Part shown: positions 15,970 to 39,814 of the stretch, piece after piece
How positions within the stretch are numbered: the stretch's first letter is position 1
Layout: each line of letters opens with the position of its first letter
Origin: a virus
Lineage: Duplodnaviria; Caudoviricetes
IMG/VR virus record: IMGVR_UViG_3300042981_000082
Span: 1-57,320 of that record
Reading direction: 5' to 3' (one strand)
DNA: 57,320 nucleotides
Notes under the pieces: generated by a model
Told to the model about the DNA's origin: nothing
Databases searched by the model: none
What the model saw: the letters and a program-made list of their open reading frames with translations, nothing else
Translations under genes and position numbers: made by a program

Positions 15970-16578
15970 TTACGGCTCCTCGTCTGCCGGTCCCCAGGTG
16001 ACGCCATCCGGCGCCTGCTCCAGGGTGAAGATGTCGGCCTCCTCGACCTCGCCGCCCATCTCCTGGACGAATTTGTCCACCATCGCGTTGAATTCGTCCA
16101 CCGATGGGTTGGAGACCTCCATCTTGACCGGCGCATCCAGGCCCCAGAGCTTGGCCTTGCGGTCGATGATCGATACCGCCTGGCGAACGTAGGCCAGGTG
16201 CTCGGAATCGTTCTTATCCAGGGCGCGAGCGGCCACGGACTTCATCAGACCGTCCAGCTGGGCTGATGCGATGGCGCGCATCATCTTGTAGTCCACGTCC
16301 GAGTCGCCGGAGTCCGCGATGGCGCGCTCCACGGCGAGGCGAGCCGCCGCTGGCGAGGAGTATTCCTGCAATTGGGCGATCTCGGCGTATGTTGCACCGG
16401 CCAACTTGAGCTTGACCGCCGCCAGGGCCGATCGATCGCTGCGCTTCTTGACCTGGGCGGAGTCTTTGTCATCGCCGAGGTCGTTGACCACGTTCGGCTG
16501 GCCGTCATCGCGCACAGACTCCGTGGTGATCTTCTTTCCCTCGCGTCCGAAGGTGATCGTGTTCGCCATTATCGCCAT
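15970..16578 (-). CDS. Putative terminase small subunit (HTH)
   Basis: AVKLKLAGATYAEIA...AARLAVERA...IIDRKAKLWGLDAP pattern; upstream of terL. Confidence 0.7.
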   Translation of the reverse strand: MAIMANTITFGREGKKITTESVRDDGQPNVVNDLGDDKDSAQVKKRSDRSALAAVKLKLAGATYAEIAQLQEYSSPAAARLAVERAIADSGDSDVDYKMMRAIASAQLDGLMKSVAARALDKNDSEHLAYVRQAVSIIDRKAKLWGLDAPVKMEVSNPSVDEFNAMVDKFVQEMGGEVEEADIFTLEQAPDGVTWGPADEEP

Positions 16579-17219
16579 GCTCCGATCTCGAATCCGTCAA
16601 GCTCCATCTGGCCCACCCGTTTCAGGCCCAGTGCCTGGCGAATCCGGTTGTAGTCGGTCGAGGTGAATTCCCCGGTGCCGCCACGAGGCTCGATGGTGAT
16701 GGCTGTGCACGCATCGCCGTCCTCGGATCGCTCTGGATACACGTCATAGAGTTCATCCTTGGCGTGCGTGGCCTCCCCGGCTGGCTCCGCCTCGAAGTCG
16801 AGCCGCTCGTCGAGGGAATCCAGCAGGGTTTGTAGTTCGGCGGCGTCGAAGCCGGTTCCCAGCAGTCCCTCGTCGGACTCGCTGATGGCGTCCAGCAGCT
16901 GGGCGAGCCGTGTCGGGTCGTCAATTCCCAGCCGGGTGATCTTGTTGTCGGCCACCATGATGCGCTTGGCCTCGATGTCGTCCACATCCAGGAAGATCAC
17001 CGGGATGGATTCTTCACCAGCGGCCTTCATCACCTCCCAGCGGTGGTTCCCGGCCAGGATGTAGCCGGTCGAGGCCTGCACCAGCACCGGAGCGTAGAAG
17101 CCGGAGATCTCGATGGACTCCGTGAGGGCCTGGATGTCGGATTCGTTGGCGTTGTCGGGGTGTCGCTCGATCTCATCGATGGGGGAGGAGACGACTTGGA
17201 GATTTTCATGCACTCGCAT
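16569..17219 (-). CDS. ParB-like nuclease domain protein
   Basis: HPDNAN...SIEISGFYAPVLV...ILAGNHRW...ADNK (ParB N-terminal domain). Confidence 0.85.
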   Translation of the reverse strand: MRVHENLQVVSSPIDEIERHPDNANESDIQALTESIEISGFYAPVLVQASTGYILAGNHRWEVMKAAGEESIPVIFLDVDDIEAKRIMVADNKITRLGIDDPTRLAQLLDAISESDEGLLGTGFDAAELQTLLDSLDERLDFEAEPAGEATHAKDELYDVYPERSEDGDACTAITIEPRGGTGEFTSTDYNRIRQALGLKRVGQMELDGFEIGAWR

Positions 17220-17409
17220 CGGGTGAGCCTTTCGATTTTTGCGTTCCGAGCCGGTGTCCATCGGCTTTGACGAGGGAGCGGATGTAGGCCGAGCGGTCTG
17301 CGAAGCCGCGCAGCGCCCGTTGACGGTCCAGGCTTGCCTGTTCCGCCTTGGAGAACTTGGTTGTCACCGGCACGGTGCGCGCAACCGGTCCATCGGGTGG
17401 TCGTCCCAT
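17206..17409 (-). CDS. Ribbon-helix-helix DNA-binding protein
   Basis: MGRPP...VTTKFSKAEQASLD...RSAYIRSLV; TACGAT -10-like box 7 nt upstream (possibly leaderless). Confidence 0.65.
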   Translation of the reverse strand: MGRPPDGPVARTVPVTTKFSKAEQASLDRQRALRGFADRSAYIRSLVKADGHRLGTQKSKGSPDASA

Positions 17410-21152: not shown

Positions 21153-22034
21153 ATGACGAACAACTGGAACATGGCCGAGCGGATGGCGCGGATCGCCTGG
21201 AGCACAATCGCGGAGCCCGGAGACCCGTACGTGGACTCCTGGTGCACGGAGGAGGGCGGATACAGCCAGGGCATCAAGGCGCTGGCCGAATACCAGGGGA
21301 AGGCCCATCATGTGCTGCGCTGGCAGGCCCAGATGGAGACCTCGCTGGTCCCGCGCGTGACCAGGCTGCTGGCCGAGCACCAGATCGGCACGCTCATCCC
21401 GGGCGATGTGTACTGGCCGCGTCGAATCGGCGATCTCGGGGGCAACGCGCCCTGGATCCTGTACTTCCGTGGCGCTCCCGAGATGCTGGACGAGGACAAG
21501 ATCGTGGCCGTCATTGGCGCTCGTGCCGCCACTGCGTACGGCGAACACGTGTCCAGGACCTGGAGCCAGGAATTCGCCCGGCAGAACGTGGCTGTCATCT
21601 CCGGCGGAGCCTACGGCATCGATGCGGCAGCCCATCGTGGTGCCCTCGACGAGCACGGAGCCACGATCTCCGTCATGGCTGGCGGACTGGATCGCCTCTA
21701 TCCATCCGGCAACCAGGATCTCCTAGGCACCGTGGCCTACGAGGGGCTGATGGTCAGCGAGATGCCGCCGGGATACGCGCCCACCAAGTCACGCTTCCTG
21801 GCGCGCAATCGCCTGATCGCAGCGCTGAGCGACGTGATGCTCGTGGTCGAGGCAGGTCACCGCAGCGGATCGCTGAATGCGGCGCATCATGCCATCGTCC
21901 TGGACCGCATGCTGTGTGCAGTTCCTGGACCGATCACCTCAGCCGCATCCGGCGGATCGAACGACCTGATCGCCGAGGGCGTGGCCAGGCTGGTCGCCAC
22001 CTCCGGCGATGTGATCAAACTGGGGGGCTGGTGA
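21153..22034 (+). CDS. dprA: DprA/Smf DNA-processing protein
   Basis: VAVIGARAATAYG, ISGGAYGIDAAAHRGAL, SEMPPG..P...RFLARNRLIAALS..VVEAG.RSGSL, AVPGPI. Confidence 0.95.
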   Translation: MTNNWNMAERMARIAWSTIAEPGDPYVDSWCTEEGGYSQGIKALAEYQGKAHHVLRWQAQMETSLVPRVTRLLAEHQIGTLIPGDVYWPRRIGDLGGNAPWILYFRGAPEMLDEDKIVAVIGARAATAYGEHVSRTWSQEFARQNVAVISGGAYGIDAAAHRGALDEHGATISVMAGGLDRLYPSGNQDLLGTVAYEGLMVSEMPPGYAPTKSRFLARNRLIAALSDVMLVVEAGHRSGSLNAAHHAIVLDRMLCAVPGPITSAASGGSNDLIAEGVARLVATSGDVIKLGGW

Positions 22035-25922: not shown

Positions 25923-26225
25923 ATGCTTCGAATGAAGATCCGTGTGACCGACGACGAGAAGACGATCATCTCCCGGTACGCGCACGAACAGTACACCGAG
26001 ATGTCCTCGATCATCCGATCGAAGGTCAACGCCTACGGGAAGAAGGGCCTCAAGGGGATCGCGCTGCCCAAGGTGCTCTCCTCGGTGAGCGCATCGCGTC
26101 GCAATCGTCAGCTGTCCTTCGTCATTCCACCCGAGCAGTGGGATCTTGCGCTGGAGAGATCCCGTGCGGACGGCGTGCCGTTGGCGACCATCATCCGTAG
26201 CTCGCTGCTGGAGGATGCCAGGTGA
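25923..26225 (+). CDS. Tandem ribbon-helix-helix DNA-binding protein
   Basis: Two RHH-like units: MKIRVTDDEK...MSSIIRSKV and LSFVIPPEQW...LATIIRSSL. Confidence 0.65.
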   Translation: MLRMKIRVTDDEKTIISRYAHEQYTEMSSIIRSKVNAYGKKGLKGIALPKVLSSVSASRRNRQLSFVIPPEQWDLALERSRADGVPLATIIRSSLLEDAR

Positions 26226-26869
26226 GTGAGCCGTACTACGTCGATGAGTACGTGACACTCTTCCTGGGCCGGATGCAGGACAACGACCAGTGGCTGGACG
26301 CCGACGTGCTGATCACCGACCCGCCATACGGGATGCGCTACGTCAGCAACTCCTCCAAGGTCTCCCCGACAGACCCGATCATCGGCGACCAGGACACCAC
26401 CCAGCGCGACATTGCGCTGGCCATGTGGGGCGATAAGAAGGCGGCGCTGGTGTTCGGGACCTGGCGTGCAGATCGTCCGCGAGGCACGCGCCAGTTGCTG
26501 GTCTGGCACAAGGGGGACTCGCCGGGGATGGGCGACCTCACCCTGCCGTGGGGACCCAGCCACGAGGAGATCTACGTGCTGGGCGGACGCGGTGGAGTCG
26601 GCTTCACCGGCAAGCGAGGGCCATCCGTGATCCGCTCCCGGGTGAAGGAAGGCAGCGCGCCCAAGGATCACGATCACCCGACGCCCAAGCCGATCTACCT
26701 GATGCAGACGTTGATCGCCAAGACCACCGGGACCATCGCCGATCCGTTCGCAGGATCGGGAGCAACAGCCGTGGCAGCCAAGATGCTGCGGCGCAAGTGC
26801 ATTGCCGTGGAGTTGGACCGCGGCTATTGCGACACAATCGTCCAGCGACTGGAGCGTATAGAACGATGA
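26222..26869 (+). CDS. Orphan amino-DNA methyltransferase (m6A/m4C, beta class)
   Basis: Catalytic DPPY precedes HPTPKP and the SAM motif DPFAGSG. Confidence 0.9.
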   Translation: MSEPYYVDEYVTLFLGRMQDNDQWLDADVLITDPPYGMRYVSNSSKVSPTDPIIGDQDTTQRDIALAMWGDKKAALVFGTWRADRPRGTRQLLVWHKGDSPGMGDLTLPWGPSHEEIYVLGGRGGVGFTGKRGPSVIRSRVKEGSAPKDHDHPTPKPIYLMQTLIAKTTGTIADPFAGSGATAVAAKMLRRKCIAVELDRGYCDTIVQRLERIER

Positions 26870-28169: not shown

Positions 28170-28897
28170 GCATCGAGGCAATGAGATGGGTCTGGGAGAA
28201 CACGACCTATACGGGTAACAAGCTAAATACTCTCGTTGCGATAGCCAGTTTCCTGGACGCGAGCGGACATGGCTACCCAGGCATCGACAAGATTCGTGAG
28301 CGCTGTCACTTATCGAAGAACACCGTGCTCAAATTCATCGCTGAATACGAGGACGAGGGCGTGCTCAGCAGGGATCGTCGCAACGTGGACAAGGGCTATC
28401 GGACGAGCAATGAATACCACTTGACGAGCCTAAGTCCAAAGTCCAACAAGACTGGACCTAGGCCTAAGTCCAGTTTTGAGCAGCCTAAGTCCAGTTTTGA
28501 GCAGCCTAAGTCCAACATGTTGGACCTACATAGGAAAGTAAGTACAGAAAGTCAGAAAGAAAGTCAGTTAACTACGCGCGAGGGATTCGATTCTGTCTGG
28601 GATTCATGGCCTCGGAAAGAGAACAAGCGAGCAGCGAAGAAGGCCTTCGAGATCGCGATGGAGAAGTCGCCCGACGAGCGAGCGGTGATCAATCGCATCC
28701 TCGTATTCGGCCAGATCTTCAGCCGTGGCAATCCGAAGTACGTTCCGGGACTGGCCAGGTGGCTGGACGACGAGCGCTGGAACGACGAGCTACCCAGGGA
28801 GAGAGCGCCCCTGAATGACAGCAACATGGACGCCATGGTCCGGCTCAGTGGCTGGATCAACGCAACACCAGGAACGATTGGAGGGATCACATCATGA
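28166..28897 (+). CDS. Phage replication initiator (N-terminal HTH, lambda O-like organisation)
   Basis: MSIEAMRWVW...LVAIA...GYPGIDKI..RC.LS..TV...; C-terminal FDSVWDSWPRKENKRAAKKAF...WLDDERWNDE. Confidence 0.82.
   Translation: MSIEAMRWVWENTTYTGNKLNTLVAIASFLDASGHGYPGIDKIRERCHLSKNTVLKFIAEYEDEGVLSRDRRNVDKGYRTSNEYHLTSLSPKSNKTGPRPKSSFEQPKSSFEQPKSNMLDLHRKVSTESQKESQLTTREGFDSVWDSWPRKENKRAAKKAFEIAMEKSPDERAVINRILVFGQIFSRGNPKYVPGLARWLDDERWNDELPRERAPLNDSNMDAMVRLSGWINATPGTIGGITS
28428..28567. repeat. Iteron-like repeats, putative origin of replication inside the initiator gene
   Basis: GCCTAAGTCCA at 28428, 28462, 28483, 28504 (last three with 21-bp period); inverted copies TGGACCTA at 28453 and 28521; A-rich AGAAAGTCAG repeats follow. 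Confidence 0.78.
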
Positions 28898-29247
28898 CCA
28901 AGAAAGAAATCGCTGCACTCCTCGGCCTCATCGCCGGGGCTGATGGCCGACAGCCAGATGCACTGATGGCCGAGGCATGGTACGCCGTCCTCGATGGGAT
29001 GGACATCACGTTCCCGCAGGCACGCGAGAAGGTCCTCGCGTTCTACCGTGCCGGACACACCCGGCGCATCCAGATCGGCGACATCACCGCCAAGAAGAAG
29101 ATCACCGAGCAGGACGGCTACAACATCAAGCGCCGGGACCTGTTCGGCGAGCGCCGTCGTTGGCAGGCGGCTCATCCCAACGGCACCGCTGCCGAGTTCG
29201 CCAAGTGGTACGAGGCCACCGACAACCAGATCGAGCCGAAGCCATGA
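28894..29247 (+). CDS. Putative helicase loader/inhibitor
   Basis: EIAALLGLIAGADGR...AEAWYAVL...; lies between initiator and helicase. Confidence 0.6.
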   Translation: MTKKEIAALLGLIAGADGRQPDALMAEAWYAVLDGMDITFPQAREKVLAFYRAGHTRRIQIGDITAKKKITEQDGYNIKRRDLFGERRRWQAAHPNGTAAEFAKWYEATDNQIEPKP

Positions 29248-30452
29248 CCGGGACAGTTGCCGAGCAGCACCTGATCGGTGCGGTGATCCTCGAGCCTCGG
29301 TACTACACAAGTCTGGAGCAGCTGGTCACCGGCGACGACTTCAGCGATGCGCGGATGGGCCAGGTCTACGATCGCATCGGCCAGATGCTGCGCGCCGGAG
29401 AGGTGGTCGATCAGATCACCGTCATTGAGGCCATCGAGTCCCTGGACCTGGTGAACTTCGACTCGACCCAGGTGTTCTCCTGGGCGGATGCATCGGTGGC
29501 TCCATCGGCAGCGGTGGACTACGCCAAGGCCGTACGCCGGGACAAGCTGCGTCGTGCCATGGGCGACGTGGTTCAGGTCATGACCGAGCGCGCAGCATCC
29601 GGCGATAGCCCGTTCGACATCGCCAGCGATTCGATGCGTGCGCTGTCCAGCGTGCTGGAAGGGGCGACCTCGGGGCGCTTGCAACCCAAGCGGTTGCGGG
29701 AGATCCTGGATGAGCCAGACAGCTTCGACTGGATCATCCCCGGCTTGCTGGAACGCCAAGACCGACTGATCCTGACCGGAGGTGAGGGCGTGGGAAAGAC
29801 GACATTTGCACGCCAGATAGTCCTGCTTGCTGCCGCTGGCCTGCACCCGCTACGCTTCGAGCGGATGCATCCCGTCCGCTGCCTGGTTGTCGATGCCGAG
29901 AACACCGAGAGGCAGTGGCGCAGGTACGTTCGCTGGCTTGCGCACGATGCTGCTGAGCAGGGCGTCATTGATCCTCGCGATCACGTGTTCATCCAGGCAG
30001 GATCACGAATCGATATCACCAGTGGCAGCGACCTGGCCGAGATCCATCGGCTCATCGATATCCACAAGCCCGACCTGCTGTACATCGGGCCGCTCTACAA
30101 GCTCGTTCCGAAAGCGATCTATTCGGACGACGACGCCGCACCCCTGATCGTGGCATTGGATTCGCTGCGGGACCGGGGCCTGGCGCTGGTCATGGAAGCA
30201 CACGCTGGCAAGGCCAAAGATCACCACGGCGACAGGTCACTGGAGCCGAGGGGGTCGAGCCAGCTACTGGGCTGGCCGGAGTTCGGATTGGGACTCCGGC
30301 AAGACGAGGACGACCCCAAGCGGGTTGACGTTGTGCGCTGGCGTGGCGACCGTGAGGCCGACCGCGAATGGCCCACGGCGATGTACCACGGCAAGACCTT
30401 CCCCTGGATCGATTCGTCGATCCGAAATCAGAACGGAGAACCTGATGAGTGA
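29244..30452 (+). CDS. DnaB-like replicative helicase (DnaB N-terminal domain plus RecA-type ATPase)
   Basis: AEQHLIGAVIL...GDDF; Walker A GGEGVGKT; VVDAEN; HAGK; PRGSS. Confidence 0.88.
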   Translation: MTGTVAEQHLIGAVILEPRYYTSLEQLVTGDDFSDARMGQVYDRIGQMLRAGEVVDQITVIEAIESLDLVNFDSTQVFSWADASVAPSAAVDYAKAVRRDKLRRAMGDVVQVMTERAASGDSPFDIASDSMRALSSVLEGATSGRLQPKRLREILDEPDSFDWIIPGLLERQDRLILTGGEGVGKTTFARQIVLLAAAGLHPLRFERMHPVRCLVVDAENTERQWRRYVRWLAHDAAEQGVIDPRDHVFIQAGSRIDITSGSDLAEIHRLIDIHKPDLLYIGPLYKLVPKAIYSDDDAAPLIVALDSLRDRGLALVMEAHAGKAKDHHGDRSLEPRGSSQLLGWPEFGLGLRQDEDDPKRVDVVRWRGDREADREWPTAMYHGKTFPWIDSSIRNQNGEPDE

Positions 30453-32945: not shown

Positions 32946-33359
32946 ATGAAGAAGAAGGATCGGATCGAACAGCTGGAGAGCCTCACCCGTGGACTGCGAG
33001 CACGGGTGGTCAACTACAACAGCCTCATCGATAGCAACAAGTACCTCATCGAGGCGACCACCGCAGAGTTGCGCAAGGCCGAGCGTGAACTGGCCGAGCT
33101 ACATCGCCCGAAGGAACCAAAGCCGGGATCTGTCATCACGTTCTCGCGGACCTATGTCGGGTCTAGGACGACCTACGAGTATGCGGCGCTTCGAGTCGGC
33201 GACACCTGGTACATCACCGGCGCCACGTGCCCTCGGAACGGCTTCACCTGGGGAGCGTTGCTGCAATTCATCAGCGGCAAGAACTTCGGCGCGAACCTGC
33301 TCAGACACAGTGACATCGTGGTGGTCAAGACCGGCAAGGTCATCGAGGTTCCACGGTGA
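32946..33359 (+). CDS. Hypothetical protein
   Basis: Coiled coil then PGSVITF...YEYAALRVGDTWYITG. Confidence 0.7.
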   Translation: MKKKDRIEQLESLTRGLRARVVNYNSLIDSNKYLIEATTAELRKAERELAELHRPKEPKPGSVITFSRTYVGSRTTYEYAALRVGDTWYITGATCPRNGFTWGALLQFISGKNFGANLLRHSDIVVVKTGKVIEVPR

Positions 33360-33700
33360 CCAGGATCAATGGCCGCCACGTGGTGCAGATGGTCGGTGAC
33401 GACAAGCTCGTGTTCACCGATGATCACACCGGCGTGGAGGTCGTGATGCCGATGGCCGCTATGGAGGCGATCCTCTCGCTGTGGGCACTCGACGTTGCGC
33501 AGGGCAAGACCTTCAACGTGAAGGCCGGTGCGCACGAGCGCATCACGTTTCAGCCAGACGAGTTCGAGTCGGTCAAGCAGGCCGTCGAGTACTTCATCTG
33601 GATCTCCAGAACACCACTGAGCCAGCGTGGCGAGGTGAGCATCGTGTCATTCGACTCCATCGAGGATGCGATGGACTTCTTGAAAGGACAAGGATCATGA
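33356..33700 (+). CDS. Hypothetical protein
   Basis: GTGA-coupled, 114 aa. Confidence 0.65.
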   Translation: MTRINGRHVVQMVGDDKLVFTDDHTGVEVVMPMAAMEAILSLWALDVAQGKTFNVKAGAHERITFQPDEFESVKQAVEYFIWISRTPLSQRGEVSIVSFDSIEDAMDFLKGQGS

Positions 33701-34245: not shown

Positions 34246-34540
34246 CCAGCGCGAGCAGCGCGAGTTCCTGGAGTTCATCAGGCGGCAGCAGAAGCAGCAG
34301 GAATTCGAGGCTCAATTCTCGGAGCGCTTCGCCGCCAACCTGGACCGCTACCACCAGGACCCCGAGTTCAAGCACAGGGTCTGGATGCTGCACGAGGTTG
34401 CTGCGCTGGCCAGGTTGCTATGGCCCGAGGTGTTCGGCCAGACCCGTGTCGAGTCGCATGTTGACACCGACATCCCGACGATGATCGCCGTCATGACCGC
34501 GTTGGAGATGGACTTGCTGAGCGACCGCGACAACATCTAA
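34226..34540 (+). CDS. Hypothetical protein
   Basis: GAAAGG RBS, 104 aa. Confidence 0.6.
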   Translation: MPRESNSQREQREFLEFIRRQQKQQEFEAQFSERFAANLDRYHQDPEFKHRVWMLHEVAALARLLWPEVFGQTRVESHVDTDIPTMIAVMTALEMDLLSDRDNI

Positions 34541-34591
34541 ACTAGTTACGTGCCCGTTGATCACGGGCGAGACATTGAGACTGGAGATGAA

Positions 34592-35071
34592 ATGGCACAG
34601 GGCGAAACGCAACTTACGGTGATCGGGAACCTCACCGCCGATGCCGAACTGCGATACACGCAGGCGGGATTGGCCGTGGCGAACTTCACGATCGCATCAA
34701 CGCCCCGCGAATTCGACAAGGCCAGCAACGAGTGGAAAGACGGACAGGCATTGTTCCTCCGGTGCTCCGCTTGGCGCGACCTCGCCGAGAACGTGACCGG
34801 CTCGCTGACGAAGGGATCGCGAGTGATCGCGGTCGGACGCCTCAAGCAGCGCAGCTACGACACCAAGGAAGGCGAACACCGAACCGTCATCGAGATGGAT
34901 GTCGATGAGATCGGGCCATCCTTGCGGTTTGCAACGGTGAGCGTTCAACGCTCGCAGACGAGCCGGACACAGCAGGACAACAGACAGCGCACGCAGACCG
35001 GCACCGATGGTGCCACGCCAGCGGATGATGTCTGGAACGCACCTGGCTACGACGACGAGACTCCGTTCTAG
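34592..35071 (+). CDS. ssb: Single-stranded DNA-binding protein
   Basis: [33 protein letters not shown]...[21 protein letters not shown]; acidic tail DDETPF. Confidence 0.96.
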
Positions 35072-35089
35072 GTCGCCGCAGTCAGCACC

Positions 35090-35122
35090 GGGCCAGGTCG
35101 TTTTTGGGGTACGACCTGGCCC
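35090..35122 (+). promoter_or_regulatory. 12-bp stem-loop at the 5' boundary of the RAMP-like/array module
   Basis: gggccaggtcgt/acgacctggccc. Confidence 0.6.
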
Positions 35123-35149
35123 ACCACCCCGAAGAAAAGGAAAAGGATC

Positions 35150-35803
35150 ATGGCAGAAACACAGGCAGTTGCACCACGCATCGAGATCGATCGCATCCCG
35201 ATTGAGACAATCCGCGTCCCGTTGATCGGACTCAGCCCGTTGATCGTGCACAACTTCAGCGAGAAGTCCAAGCGCCAGATGCTGGAGGCGCAGCAGGGCA
35301 AGAAGAAGGTCAAGGCCGTACGCGATCCAGAAGCTGAATACCTCGCGGCGTTCTATCGCATCCGCGAGATCGGCGACGAGCAGGATCGCTACGGATTCCC
35401 GGTCACCGCCTTCAAGGCAGCGACCACCGGAGCCGCCAGGTTCTATGACAAGTCCATCAGCATGACCGGCCTGCGTCAGTTCCTGTTCTTCCGTGGCATC
35501 CTCACCGATGCGGACCCACAGCAGCTTGTCGAGATCAACGGCGAGCCTCGGATGCGCGAGGACATCGTGCGGCTCGGCGGGGTGTCCCGCTCGGCTGACC
35601 TGCGCTACCGTCCCGAGTTCATCAACTGGACCGCGACGCTGGATGTGACATACGTGGCATCCTCGATCAGCCAGAATTCGGTGCTGTCGCTGATCGACGC
35701 CGGAGGCCTGGGCATCGGCGTCGGCGAATGGCGACCGGAGAAGCGCGGCGAGTTCGGCACCTACGCCATCGACCAGTCCAGGGCGGTCGAGGTTCTGCCA
35801 TGA
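35150..35803 (+). CDS. RAMP/Cas7-like protein, putative effector of the downstream pentamer array
   Basis: IRVPLIGLSPLIVH (RAMP first strand), YGFPVTAFKAA (cf. iP.sslKGa), RYRPEF..W, and C-terminal Gly-rich loop GGLGIGVGEWRPEKRGEFGTY; the ORF is certain, the fold is inferred. Confidence 0.7.
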   Translation: MAETQAVAPRIEIDRIPIETIRVPLIGLSPLIVHNFSEKSKRQMLEAQQGKKKVKAVRDPEAEYLAAFYRIREIGDEQDRYGFPVTAFKAATTGAARFYDKSISMTGLRQFLFFRGILTDADPQQLVEINGEPRMREDIVRLGGVSRSADLRYRPEFINWTATLDVTYVASSISQNSVLSLIDAGGLGIGVGEWRPEKRGEFGTYAIDQSRAVEVLP

Positions 35804-36216
35804 GCGACCTGCGCGAACACCTCCTGAGCATCCGACGCCAGCACGGAGCGCTCACCCCGCGTGCCGTGCTGGTGGAGGCCGAGCCGGAGGACTCACCGCT
35901 GCATCACCATTTCGAGTGGGACCAGGAGGCGGCGGCGGATGCCTACCGGCTTGAGCAGGCGCGCGAGTTGATCCGTTCCGTGATGGTCGTCTACACCGAC
36001 AGCAAGGCACGCAACCGGAGTGTGCGCGGTTTCGTGAACGTCCAGCAGGCTGGATCTACCGGTCGCGAATACAAGCCCATCGAGGAGGTGGCGCAGGACC
36101 CGTTCGCGCGTCAGCTTGTCCTGCGTGAAGCCGAACGCGACTGGAAGGCACTGCGCTCCAAGTACGGGGACCTCCAGGAATTCATGGATCTCGTGCGCAA
36201 CGATGTCGCAGTCTAG
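35800..36216 (+). CDS. Conserved hypothetical protein coupled to the RAMP-like gene (array-associated accessory)
   Basis: ATGA overlap; G.LTP.AVL..A....SPLH..FEWD...AA..YRL.QAR.LIRSV motif; its stop codon supplies the first G of the array. Confidence 0.75.
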   Translation: MSDLREHLLSIRRQHGALTPRAVLVEAEPEDSPLHHHFEWDQEAAADAYRLEQARELIRSVMVVYTDSKARNRSVRGFVNVQQAGSTGREYKPIEEVAQDPFARQLVLREAERDWKALRSKYGDLQEFMDLVRNDVAV

Positions 36217-36764
36217 GCAGGCCAGGCTAGTCGAGGCGGGTCGAGTCCAGGCAAGGCGCGGCGAGGCAGGCGAGTCGAGGCATGACGTGGTAGGGCTTGG
36301 CGGGGCTGGGCTAGGCAGAGCGAGGCAGGGCAGGCAGGGTACGGCCTGGTGCGGCCTGGCTGGGCTTGGCGCGTCGAGGCAGGCAAGGCATGGCTCGTCA
36401 GAGCATGGCTCGGCTTGGCACGGCAGGCTGGGCATGGCACGGCAAGTCTGGGTCCGGCAGGGTTCGGTTGGGCGCGGTGTGGCGTGGCAAGGCAGGCACG
36501 GTGCGGCGTGGGGAGGCACGGCGGGGCGCGGCTTGGCAGGCACGGCACGGCTCGGCTAGACATGGCAGGTCTCGGCCCGGCAAGGCAGGCACGGAATGGC
36601 GTGGTTGGGCTTGGCTCGGCGGGGTGTGGCACGGCAGGCGAGGTATGGCTCGGCCTGGCATGGCAGGGCAGGGTTGGGCTGGGTGCGGCAAGGCAGGCTG
36701 GGCATGGAATGGCCAGGCAGGGCAAGGCTGGGCACGGCCGGGCTTGGCGCGGCAGGCAAGGCTG
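36216..36764 (+). repeat. GGY-NN pentamer array: 101 pentamers in 10 units separated by 11 GGCA tetramers; putative guide-RNA precursor
   Basis: Manual parse accounts for every base (101x5 + 11x4 = 549); 86 of 101 pentamers start GGC/GGT; last two bases are variable; GGCA at 36216, 36265, 36329, 36378, 36422, 36491, 36535, 36584, 36633, 36692, 36751. Confidence 0.93.
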
Positions 36765-36785
36765 GAAGTAACGAAAGGAAACGCA

Positions 36786-37277
36786 GTGGAAATCGCGTTT
36801 GAGGTCGATGGCGTGCCGGGACCGCAAGGGTCGAAGCGGTACGTCGGCAAGCGCAAGAAAGGTCCCCGAGCCGGGCAGGCAATCATGATCGAGTCGTCGA
36901 AAAAAGTTCGACCCTGGCGCGAGGCCGTTCGCCTCGCCGCCATCCAGGCGATGGACGAGGACCCAACCTGGGAACGCGGATTCGATGGACCGGTTGCGCT
37001 GAGCATTTTGTTCTACTTGCCGCGTCCAGAATCTGCACCGAAACGATCACGAATCCGAGCTAAGAGAGTGCCCGACGTGTCCAAACTTTTGCGTGCCACC
37101 GAGGACGCGATCACCGACTCGGGCCTATGGCGGGATGACGCTCGCGTTGTCATCGCCCACGTGGAAAAAACATACGCGATCGGATCGCACCTGAGCGCCA
37201 TCTATCAACTCGACGACCGCGAGATAGCGGGAGCCGAGATCACCATCGAAGCACTGGGAGAAACGGAGGACACATGA
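36786..37277 (+). CDS. rusA: RusA-like Holliday junction resolvase
   Basis: VDGVPGPQGSK...ESSKKVRPWR...PDVSKLLRATEDAIT..GLWRDDARVV; GTG start with AAAGGA RBS. Confidence 0.9.
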   Translation: MEIAFEVDGVPGPQGSKRYVGKRKKGPRAGQAIMIESSKKVRPWREAVRLAAIQAMDEDPTWERGFDGPVALSILFYLPRPESAPKRSRIRAKRVPDVSKLLRATEDAITDSGLWRDDARVVIAHVEKTYAIGSHLSAIYQLDDREIAGAEITIEALGETEDT

Positions 37278-38382: not shown

Positions 38383-38861
38383 GGACACAAGACGAGATCC
38401 GCGCTCGATTGGACACCGTGCGCGCATCCCATCTGGACTTCCTGGGCAAGCGCCAGGAGGTGCTCGTCCAGACGCTGGACTATGAGCACATCAAGGATCT
38501 GCTCACCGATCCCGACCCGGAGAAGTGGGGCGATCCACAGACGCCGTGGGAAACCTCAGCGGCTGCTGGCGAATACCTGGCATTCGCCGTGGAGAAGGCG
38601 ATCGATCACCGGGGCCTCTCGGCCAACCGATCTATCGACGCCTTCACCGAGTACCTGTGGCTGCTCACCGACGACGACACCTGCCGGAAGTTCGATGAGG
38701 TCCGCTACGCCCCGTATGGGATGCCGAAGCTGAAGTTCGCGGCGGAGGCGCTGGGCTTCACGGAGGCCTTCGACGCCATGGGCAAGGAGTACGGAGTCGA
38801 GATGGCGCGGATGGCGGCTGGGCTGTCGTGCAGCGATAACTGCGGGGAGTGTTTCTCGTGA
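38379..38861 (+). CDS. Hypothetical protein
   Basis: 160 aa; FAVEKAIDHRGLSANRS...WLL...YGMPKL. Confidence 0.75.
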   Translation: MRTQDEIRARLDTVRASHLDFLGKRQEVLVQTLDYEHIKDLLTDPDPEKWGDPQTPWETSAAAGEYLAFAVEKAIDHRGLSANRSIDAFTEYLWLLTDDDTCRKFDEVRYAPYGMPKLKFAAEALGFTEAFDAMGKEYGVEMARMAAGLSCSDNCGECFS

Positions 38862-39814
38862 CCGGCGTCGAGGTGATTCAGCGAGGCCAGCGCCTGGCCG
38901 AGCAGATGGTGGCCGATATGGTGCACCACCAGAACAACCGGCCTCGTTCGCTCCAGAGCCAGAAGCGCATCCTGGGTATGAGCGAGATGGGCGGATGCCG
39001 CGAGTACATCCGGGCCACCATCGCCGGGGACAAGAAGATGGACCCGACGCTGTGGAAGCAGGAGGCCGAGTTCGGCACGGCGCTGGGCGACTACATCGAG
39101 AACGCCATCGGCGAGGCGCACGGTGATGACGTGATGCTCCAGCACAGGCTGACGCTGGAGTTGCAGGTGGGCGGTCATCCCATTCGGGTATCCGGCTCCA
39201 CCGACATCATCTACATCACCGACGACGGAGACATCGTTGACCTCAAGTCGAAGAACGGGCTGGGCCTGACCAAGCGCGAGGGACCGACCTTCAAGAACAA
39301 GGCTCAGCTGGCTGGCTACATGGAGGCTGCCGTCCAGGAAGGCCTGGTGAATCCAGAGACAGTAGCTGGACACCTCATGTTCTTCGACCGGGGAGCAGCC
39401 GAGAAGGGCTTCCTGCCGTACTCGATGGACTACGCGCAGGCCAAGCTGATCCTGGAGGCGGTGTCCGAGCGCCTGGAGGATGTTGCCAGCGCGCTATCCA
39501 CAGCCAGGATGGCGACCCGCGATGAGCCGGAGTCCTGGTGCTGGGCGGTGCAGTGCCCGTTCTACAACAACTGCTGGGCTGGCTACATGCCGGATCAGAA
39601 GATCGAGAACCCCGAGGCGCTGGAAGCCATTCGCATCTACGTCGAGGCTCGCCGTGATCGCAATGACGACATCAGCGCGGTCGAGGCTGCCAAGCAGATG
39701 CTGGAGGGAATCGAGGGCGTCACGCCGGACGGTGTTGTCGTGCGCTGGACCGAGGTCATGCCGAAATCCGGCAACGCCTACATGAAGCTCGAAGTGAGGG
39801 AGCCGAAGCAATGA
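38858..39814 (+). CDS. Cas4-family / PD-(D/E)xK exonuclease
   Basis: SEMGGCR; GSTD...IVDLKS; QLAGY; C-terminal C....CPFY..C. Confidence 0.8.
   Translation: MTGVEVIQRGQRLAEQMVADMVHHQNNRPRSLQSQKRILGMSEMGGCREYIRATIAGDKKMDPTLWKQEAEFGTALGDYIENAIGEAHGDDVMLQHRLTLELQVGGHPIRVSGSTDIIYITDDGDIVDLKSKNGLGLTKREGPTFKNKAQLAGYMEAAVQEGLVNPETVAGHLMFFDRGAAEKGFLPYSMDYAQAKLILEAVSERLEDVASALSTARMATRDEPESWCWAVQCPFYNNCWAGYMPDQKIENPEALEAIRIYVEARRDRNDDISAVEAAKQMLEGIEGVTPDGVVVRWTEVMPKSGNAYMKLEVREPKQ

Follow-up and report, generated by a model that had tools for sequence, protein, structure and literature searches.

A phage RAMP protein, its accessory gene, and a staggered GGYNN array that very probably constitute a VIPR system

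The virus contig IMGVR_UViG_3300042981_000082 (Duplodnaviria; Caudoviricetes), hereafter called the window since the entire 57,320-bp record was analyzed, carries on its plus strand three adjoining elements: a gene for a 217-residue protein (vipr), a gene for a 138-residue accessory protein (vap), and an array of GGYNN pentamers. Homology and conserved sequence features indicate that the first gene very probably encodes a Vipr, the small, Cas7-like subunit that binds RNA in VIPR (Viral Interference Programmable Repeat) systems, and we are confident that the three parts together make up such a system. VIPR systems consist of a phage Vipr, which is a minimal RAMP protein, and an accessory vap (10.64898/2026.04.26.720920, 10.64898/2026.04.26.720927, 10.64898/2026.10.15.759431). 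As described in these preprints, the vrRNAs alternate GGY and NN, Vipr protomers bury the GGY and expose the NN, and the NN pairs read double-stranded DNA (dsDNA) with one target base skipped per unit, the outcome being transcriptional silencing of competing phages, prophages, and satellites. In the system of Escherichia phage SUSP1, which is of type II, dsDNA is bound and repression is obtained from either strand (10.64898/2026.04.26.720920; 10.64898/2026.04.26.720927).

VIPR was described in print between April and October 2026, and the system in the window is of this already described kind. The present work contributes the anatomy of its staggered array with a conserved GGCA/G punctuation (the slash marks a one-base slip in register), a vap family different from vap1, the occurrence of the module in cultured actinobacteriophages, and a recurring guide to the catalytic motif of ImmA/IrrE metallopeptidases.

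Results

Sequence and structure of Vipr

The vipr open reading frame (ORF) opens with ATG, closes with TGA, and is preceded, a few bases 5' of its start, by a purine-rich, Shine-Dalgarno-like AAGGA. RAMP-like motifs had been noticed in this ORF (35150..35803) in an earlier note on the same DNA, and all four of them are indeed found in the translation. The SPL motif (residues 29-31) is at the end of the first strand, which covers residues 18-27 in our structural model. The second motif, P84-VTAF-K89-A90-A91, is the beginning of a helix (85-98), while the third, R152-Y-R154-P-E-F-I-N-W160, spans two strands (150-157 and 161-169). The last is a glycine-rich loop, G185-G-L-G-I-G-V-G-E-W-R-P-E-K-R-G-E-F-G203. 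In an alignment of 69 relatives sharing 34-63% identity, R154, W160, G186, G190, R195, and G203 are invariant, and G27, L31, K89, R152, G192, W194, and G200 are conserved in at least 90% of the sequences. Since their residues are conserved in this way, the four motifs are not there by chance.

Sequence searches connect the protein to one characterized relative. When the PDB is searched with the single sequence, the sole significant match is 36pp_D, "SUSP1 Vipr protein" (phmmer E 2.9e-4), and with a profile of the 69 sequences the match to 36pp reaches E 1.2e-12. Comparison with the SUSP1 gene product by hhalign gives a probability of 97.9% (E 5.7e-13) and 28% identity over 65 columns. As for family databases, PHROGs places the protein in phrog_4652, which is of "unknown function," Pfam returns nothing beyond noise (SusG_C, E 0.16), and neither NCBIfam nor PADLOC has a match. 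The family is very large, with 2535 proteins at E <= 1e-3 in a word-indexed search and 3315 cluster representatives at the same threshold in an exhaustive one. Among the 120 matches listed, every source name shown is "hypothetical protein" or "Uncharacterized protein."

The structural model strengthens the RAMP assignment. Built by AlphaFold2 (AF2) from the 69-sequence alignment, it is confident, with a predicted local distance difference test (pLDDT) of 93.7 and a predicted template modeling score (pTM) of 0.87, and its best Foldseek matches are Cas7-family backbones. The search returned 81 rows at E <= 1e-3, in which the best PDB matches are type VII Cas7, Csm3, and Cmr4, from E 1.8e-6 downward; the top one, a type VII Cas7 (E 1.8e-6), shows 16-18% identity. 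The structure library used predates 36pp and covers folds older than the Vipr structure.

In SUSP1 Vipr, G1 of the GGY is contacted by H17 and D177, G2 by R138 and W178, and Y3 by R179, and silencing is lost when either D177 or R138 is replaced by Ala (10.64898/2026.04.26.720927). In both HMMER and hhalign alignments, R138 corresponds to R154 and R179 to R195, each found in 69 of the 69 relatives, W178 corresponds to W194 (63/69), and D177 corresponds to E193, a conservative change in a column with Glu in 56, Asp in 10, and Asn in 3 of the 69. Global pairwise alignment alone pairs H17 with H34, a position occupied by His in 59 of the 69 relatives, and K33 with R42. The residues that hold G1, G2, and Y3 in SUSP1 Vipr are thus kept in the window protein as H34, R154, E193, W194, and R195. 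The earlier note had proposed a minimal RAMP or Class 1-like backbone subunit that binds (GGCNN)n RNA, and this proposal agrees well with what the sequence offers, namely, homology to SUSP1 Vipr, the GGY-contacting residues, and an adjacent array on the same strand.

The accessory gene

The same note had regarded the gene as standing alone, with neither cas operon nor CRISPR repeats in the genome. The latter part holds, the PADLOC cas models matching 0 of 65 window ORFs (a crude ORF set) and Tandem Repeats Finder detecting no repeat with a period above 27 nt in the window. The former does not, because vipr overlaps a conserved accessory gene, the end of the one sharing ATGA with the start of the other, and a 550-nt pentamer array lies beyond.

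The structural model of Vap (pLDDT 91.9) consists of three helices, a four-stranded sheet, and a 37-residue C-terminal helix, with a weakly winged-helix-like N-terminal domain. Foldseek finds nothing similar to it at E <= 1e-3, and there is no family for Vap in Pfam, NCBIfam, or PADLOC. The protein corresponds to phrog_15946 in PHROGs, and a word-indexed search lists 21 proteins including that of the window itself. Vap is unrelated to vap1 of SUSP1 (hhalign probability 0.1). According to 10.64898/2026.04.26.720920, DNA binding is predicted for the vaps of types II, VI, and VII, and we consider Vap a conserved accessory protein that possibly binds DNA.

Anatomy of the guide array

The array is about 550 nt long and is found 413 nt downstream of vipr, on the same strand. 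Its GGY-to-GGY spacing is 5 nt in 72 instances, 10 nt in 10, and 4 nt in 13. On either strand of the window, it is the sole stretch in which GGY reaches a density of 10 or more per 60 nt across no less than 100 nt, and 13 of the 14 in-phase runs of at least four units in the window fall inside it. A search of 34900-37000 against Rfam returned nothing but a chance microRNA row (E 0.5).

The 4-nt spacings give the array its organization. Twelve of the 13 four-nt units in the window are GGCA with GG directly after, so that the array splits into in-phase blocks, each of which closes with ...GGCA/G and has its final G in common with the next block. Nine full guide blocks, named D to M, can be delimited in this way, with 9-14 units (44-69 nt) each; in one of them, IJ, a 4-nt and 6-nt unit pair brings the phase back. 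There is no constant 3' tail or pseudoknot in the window array, the guides abutting at GGCA/G. The stagger agrees with the legend of fig. S18 in 10.64898/2026.04.26.720920.

The same punctuation is seen in relatives. Four-nt units number 934 across 129 related arrays, and 695 of them are GGCA. The distances between them peak at 49, 54, 44, 59, and 64 nt, and 549 of 812 such distances equal 4 modulo 5. From 80 IMG/VR loci with a gene for a relative of Vipr (36-81% identity), we extracted 889 distinct boundary contexts, in which no extended conserved motif surrounds the register slip; their NN columns carry at most 0.13 bit, while their GG columns carry 0.8-1.5 bit, in line with the signature reported for VIPR arrays. 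Such hypervariable NN beside fixed GGY indicates selection on the arrays. We conclude that the window array is of the "staggered" type and contains about nine guides.

A few further features of the array can be mentioned. Its first 60 nt (36223-36282) contain about four copies of a 14-15-nt repeat, CAGGCGAGTCGAGG, which might represent either a leader or guides that have decayed, and GTCGA, a degenerate unit, reappears further into the array at 36274 and 36373. The array has few stop codons and gives rise to spurious ORFs, at 36116-36559, 36349-36771, and, on the minus strand, 35893-36543.

One-base-skip decoding of guide G gives the catalytic motif of ImmA/IrrE metallopeptidases

To decode the guides, the NN pairs were concatenated with one wildcard between them, following the published one-base skip. 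Read in this way on the opposite strand, guide G gives L-[FL]-T-T-A-[HQ]-[DE]-L-G-[HQ]-[FL]-V-[IM]-[HQ], and each base that is skipped is the third of its codon. This is the catalytic AHELGH (HExxH) motif of ImmA/IrrE metallopeptidases. Proteases of this type cleave the repressors of prophages and integrative elements, as exemplified by ImmA/ImmR of ICEBs1 and IrrE/DdrO of Deinococcus.

The first 10 units of guide G (20 fixed bases) match 28 IMG/VR contigs exactly, and all 28 matches are on ...AHELGH[LF]VMH and share one frame, in which the skipped base is the third of the codon. Five control patterns, i.e., guide G backwards and guides L (11 units), D (10), M (10), and H (9), yielded 0 matches. 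The best matches, at two loci (L153 and L139), extend to 25 of 26 bases, and in both the match lies in a 178-residue Peptidase_M78 gene beside a 120-residue HTH gene. When up to three mismatches are allowed, guide G matches 7 of 401 Microbacteriaceae genomes and the backwards pattern none. Six of these seven matches lie in ORFs of 356-443 residues with an HTH and ...RFT[LVI]AHELGH[LA]VMH, and the seventh is in a doubtful ORF. The three matched Microbacteriaceae ORFs that were scanned all carry HTH_3 and Peptidase_M78.

In two of these genomes, the matched gene belongs to a cassette (L167 8444-10804, L168 8697-11054) made up of a 196-residue unknown gene, a 357-residue HTH_3 and Peptidase_M78 gene, and a DUF3223 gene of about 228 residues, which in one genome adjoins DNA methylase and ResIII helicase genes. 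This may be a small defense or regulatory cassette, and we regard it as a chromosomal look-alike of the guide-G target.

Guides of the same kind recur in other arrays. Guides with an H-E-[LIM]-G-H core, always after A, are present in the arrays of 12 of 124 related sources (two of which, L003 and L082, may be the same element), with 0 hits for four scrambled controls. Among the window guides, G alone resembles guides in other arrays, which agree with it at 23, 22, and 20 of 26 bases versus a maximum of 18 for shuffled guides; the other eight window guides have none there. One guide of the HELGH type belongs to a Microbacterium lacus prophage (L081). It has no match in its own genome, and it matches ImmA-like genes of three other genomes with two mismatches and a fourth genome with three, the backwards control giving 0.

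There is no sign of self-targeting, as no window guide matches the window above shuffles. Likewise, in the 80 IMG/VR loci, none of the nine guides scores above shuffled guides, and in 77 later loci, only those selected with guide G scored. We also considered guide H as a retropepsin guide because it reads T-A-V-[DE]-T-G-A, which resembles what we take to be a retropepsin-like motif, D-T-G-A; this candidate was dropped since the exact 9-unit pattern has 0 matches.

The results obtained with guide G provide independent support for reading with a one-base skip in a clade distant from SUSP1.

Conservation of the module

The three parts travel together. A same-strand, GGY-dense array is present within -1.5/+2.5 kb of vipr at 74 of the 80 IMG/VR loci, and four of the six loci that lack it are cut 660 nt or less from vipr. 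A tblastn homologue of the 138-residue Vap adjoins vipr at 70 of the 80. The order of the parts varies: it is vipr, vap, array at 32 of the 80 loci, and elsewhere the array is upstream of the genes or between them. Two of the arrays adjoining vipr are very long, GGY-dense stretches of about 4 kb (L016 10680-14683) and about 2.9 kb (L037 12424-15306), i.e., several times the length of the window array.

Relatives of Vipr are encoded in named genomes of Microbacterium, Streptomyces, Sciscionella, Varibaculum, Rhizobium, and Methylobacterium, as well as in many metagenome-assembled genomes. They also occur in 34 cultured-phage records, where all are annotated as hypothetical. These comprise five Gordonia records with 64-66% identity (UmaThurman, Pipp, ODay, and Ecliptus among the phages) and 27 Mycobacterium records with about 48% (including Brocalys and Donkeykong), together with one cyanophage and one Pseudomonas phage. 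In the two phages that we examined, UmaThurman and Brocalys, Vipr, Vap, and a staggered GGYNN array are all present, as in the window. However, the array is between vipr (gp39) and vap (gp41) in Gordonia phage UmaThurman and upstream of vipr in Mycobacterium phage Brocalys. The UmaThurman array (NC_031249.1, about 33347-33684; L158 2610-2947) is annotated in GenBank as a coding sequence, gp40, "hypothetical protein." In contrast to the window, both phages have lysogeny genes: integrase, repressor, and excise in UmaThurman, excisionase and anti-repressor in Brocalys. Among 59 window ORFs scanned with PHROGs, there is no integrase or repressor family.

Genomic context

The DNA comes from a soil metagenome run and has a GC content of 63%. 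No RNA run contains it, and a comparison with two runs revealed only the probable source contig and, in the second run, short conserved pieces. Genes for capsid, portal, terminase, major tail, tape-measure, and endolysin proteins are on the minus strand, and an early/replication block is on the plus strand. In this block, the order is SSB, vipr, vap, array (in a 570-nt gap), RusA, an HNH protein, a Rad52-like recombinase, and an exonuclease. The coordinates of the module and of its immediate neighbors are listed in Table 1. The capsid shares only 42-47% identity with its counterparts in Microbacterium and Curtobacterium phages, and Microbacterium is the origin of the closest Vipr relatives for which a source name is given. 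The probable host is an actinobacterium, perhaps a member of the Microbacteriaceae, and we consider the contig to be a 57-kb siphovirus-like actinobacteriophage from soil.

Table 1. Features of the vipr region (positions in the window)
Feature	Position	Strand	Description
SSB gene	34550..35071	+	Pfam SSB, E 1.1e-27; upstream of vipr
vipr	35150..35803	+	217-aa Vipr protein, very probably; RAMP/Cas7-like fold (RRM core, thumb, G-loop)
vap-like accessory gene	35800..36216	+	138 aa; ATG overlaps vipr TGA
vrRNA array (GGYNN)n	36216..36764	+	Whole gap between vap and rusA; gene strand
5' array part	36216..36268	+	Short or degenerate blocks, repeated GTCGAGG
Guide block D	36269..36333	+	13 units, ends GGCA/G; no target found
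Guide block E	36333..36382	+	10 units; no target found
Guide block F	36382..36426	+	9 units
Guide block G	36426..36495	+	14 units; reverse complement decodes to ImmA/IrrE HExxH motif
Guide block H	36495..36539	+	9 units; exact 9-unit pattern, 0 matches
Guide block IJ	36539..36588	+	10 units
Guide block K	36588..36637	+	10 units
Guide block L	36637..36696	+	12 units; exact 11-unit pattern, 0 matches
Guide block M	36696..36755	+	12 units; exact 10-unit pattern, 0 matches
RusA-like resolvase gene	36786..37277	+	Pfam RusA, E 4.3e-14; directly 3' of array

Several other features of the window were noted. A perfect 21-nt direct repeat, GCCTAAGTCCAGTTTTGAGCA, is present in 2.5 copies at 28462-28514, upstream of the gene for a DnaB-like helicase (28977-30452) and some 400 nt away from it, and additional AAGTCCA/AAGTACAGA repeats lie near it (28432-28568); these repeats are possibly origin iterons. 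A DprA-like protein (21153-22034, plus strand; NCBIfam TIGR00732, E 7.3e-58) also matches PADLOC ShosA of the Shosta defense system (E 5e-51). The exonuclease (38849-39814, plus strand) matches phrog_1706, "CRISPR/Cas system associated" (E 1.1e-14), as well as phage exonuclease PHROGs, and has no match among the PADLOC cas models; its gene, a neighbor of the Rad52-like one, probably encodes a recombination exonuclease and is not a cas gene. Finally, two proteins match PADLOC type II methyltransferase models: a ParB-like nuclease-domain protein (16572-17261, minus strand) and a DNA methyltransferase (26222-26869, plus strand).

Discussion

Proposed mechanism

We propose that the module works as follows. 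The array would probably be transcribed together with vipr and vap, because a scan of 34400-37000 reveals no sigma-70-like promoter (a general consensus was used, so absence in an actinobacterial host is not implied) and because the terminator-like sites in this region are on the minus strand only, with none on the plus strand. Each GGY would be held by one pair of Vipr protomers, through the G-loop, the thumb, and the first strand (H34, R154, E193, W194, and R195). By homology to SUSP1 Vipr, binding would produce a filament in which the NN pair of every 5-nt unit is left accessible. These pairs would then read dsDNA with one base skipped per unit, and binding would silence transcription. Because one base is skipped per unit, a guide can track codon positions 1-2 while ignoring the wobble base. 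This way of reading is carried over from SUSP1 and finds support in what guide G decodes to. The GGCA/G slip of one base would break the 5-nt register and end the Vipr filament, so that guide length would be set without a 3' tail. At least one guide, G, appears to be directed against genes for ImmA/IrrE-type metallopeptidases, at the segment that codes for HExxH. These genes are regulators of prophage and mobile-element induction, and the likely use of the guide would be the control of a resident competitor.

We further put forward, as a tentative proposal that falls somewhat short of probable, that the arrays of this clade keep one family-level ImmA/IrrE guide among private guides and that the GGCA/G slip delimits the guides. 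By reading codon positions 1-2 of A-H-E-L-G-H, a family-level guide could recognize many unrelated ImmA/IrrE genes of prophages and mobile elements, and since only these positions would be read, synonymous changes could not provide escape. A phage might in this way lock resident elements in a repressed state while it replicates. The slip, for its part, could serve as a ruler mechanism needing no processing nuclease signal.

Several points weigh against our interpretation. Identity to SUSP1 Vipr is low, with a confident alignment only across the C-terminal 65-125 residues or so, and the pairings of H17 with H34 and K33 with R42, obtained by global pairwise alignment, are the weakest of the residue mappings. 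In the VIPR preprints, the one-base-skip rule is demonstrated for type II systems only. For eight of the nine full guides, no target is seen in the window, in the 80 and 77 loci, or by exact patterns. Guide G itself has no perfect target, its 13-unit exact pattern giving 0 matches in viral and metagenome contigs. Because the 28 exact matches of its first 10 units span a GC of 0.32-0.61, most of them are look-alike motifs in phages of other hosts rather than the true target, and its matches in Microbacteriaceae are in a chromosomal cassette that is not visibly prophage. Every one of the 12 HELGH guides is antisense to the coding strand, and the only sense case is a weak one, a bias that fits shared descent or mRNA pairing as well as it fits DNA silencing. 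Transcription of the array, its processing, and the formation of a ribonucleoprotein (RNP) are steps that we infer.

Alternative explanations

Of the alternatives, the one that fares best, although we consider it unlikely, is that an RNP of the Vipr family acts on RNA, or in recombination or replication, and not by silencing the transcription of DNA. For example, the guides might pair with mRNAs of competitors, or the module might serve the SSB-RusA-Rad52 genes. Action on RNA is suggested by the orientation of the HELGH-type guides, all 12 of which are antisense and thus complementary to mRNA, and by the closest solved folds, since Csm3, Cmr4, and type VII Cas7 are RNA-targeting backbones. However, the antisense bias may equate to the common descent of one guide, and the homologous SUSP1 system is reported to bind dsDNA and to repress from either strand. 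A role in recombination is suggested by the location of the module between SSB and the RusA/HNH/Rad52-like genes, but this linkage is not conserved, because the module of UmaThurman adjoins integrase, repressor, and excise. The difference between Vap and vap1 also speaks for this alternative.

The earlier note had also raised the possibility of an anti-CRISPR, in which a Cas7 mimic would poison the Class 1 effector complexes of the host or soak up crRNA. We find this very improbable and found no support for it. A Cas7-like fold in a phage without cas genes is what makes the idea attractive, but the residues that hold GGY RNA are kept in Vipr, and vipr has its own adjoining pentamer array (74/80 loci), which is 5-nt periodic and not CRISPR-repeat-like. 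In addition, a homologous protein is reported to use such RNAs as guides, and the Vipr family occurs in many phyla whatever the CRISPR type. Weakest of all, and in our view hardly credible, is a decayed CRISPR-Cas remnant, i.e., a functionless orphan Cas7 with degenerate repeats, for which the lack of other cas genes might speak, but against which stand an intact vipr ORF, a very large family (2535 relatives; 3315 cluster representatives), invariant functional residues, a three-part module conserved across 36-81% identity, and an array whose hypervariable NN and fixed GGY point to selection.

Significance

Under the interpretation that we favor, a VIPR system, an uncultured actinobacteriophage from soil provides a further, well-preserved case of this form of phage RNA-guided DNA silencing, whose ancestral status, predating CRISPR, is a phylogenetic proposal of the VIPR authors (10.64898/2026.04.26.720920). 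The staggered type thereby gains concrete hypotheses for its target, ImmA/IrrE genes, and for its processing, a register slip. Moreover, the relatives place the module in tractable phages of Mycobacterium smegmatis and Gordonia terrae, in which the proteins are annotated only as hypothetical. Since Pfam, NCBIfam, and PADLOC contain no Vipr or Vap model, automatic annotation still misses such systems. VIPR arrays are recovered by a language model, as reported in 10.64898/2026.10.21.760802.

Comparison with known systems

The window system resembles the SUSP1 VIPR in that a two-gene phage operon is accompanied by an array of GGY/NN pentamers on the gene strand. Like SUSP1 Vipr, the window protein has a RAMP fold with a G-loop and a thumb, keeps the GGY-contacting residues, and is found without cas genes, although it is somewhat longer (217 versus 195 residues). 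As with published VIPR targets, one of the nine guides, G, decodes by a one-base skip onto codon positions 1-2 of a gene, and there is no self-target. The nature of the predicted target differs, however, being an ImmA/IrrE gene here and a satellite recombinase or a cI/cro-type regulator in published VIPR. The main texts of 10.64898/2026.04.26.720920 and 10.64898/2026.10.15.759431 do not mention ImmA, IrrE, or metallopeptidases, which their supplements might, and the idea of guides delimited by a register slip is likewise absent from the VIPR main texts. The probable actinobacterial host also sets the window apart from the Escherichia phage SUSP1; actinobacteria and mycobacteriophages are not mentioned in the VIPR main texts searched, and again the supplements might do so.

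The arrays differ as well. SUSP1 has vrRNAs of about 100 nt with tails on both sides of its genes, and we see GGYNN runs on both sides of the genes at the SUSP1 locus, whereas the window array is staggered, tail-less, and only downstream of vap. Because it has no constant 3' tail or pseudoknot and its Vap is unrelated to vap1, the window system is not of type II; it matches the "staggered array" variant. By the account of 10.64898/2026.04.26.720920, RNA sequencing confirmed only the ribozyme-interspersed and single-vrRNA architectures, and staggered arrays appear there in one sentence and one legend (fig. S18).

As for Class 1 CRISPR systems, Vipr has the glycine-rich loop and the thumb of Csm3 (III-A), Cmr4 (III-B), and type VII Cas7, and like these backbones it should oligomerize along a guide RNA. 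In contrast to Class 1 Cas7, it is encoded by a virus, with no cas operon and no CRISPR repeat-spacer array. Its guide period is 5 nt, of which three are buried and two read, compared with 6 nt for Cas7, of which one is flipped, and its sequence identity to Cas7-family subunits is 9-18%. Vipr shares the Cas7 fold, but operationally it is not a Class 1 Cas7.

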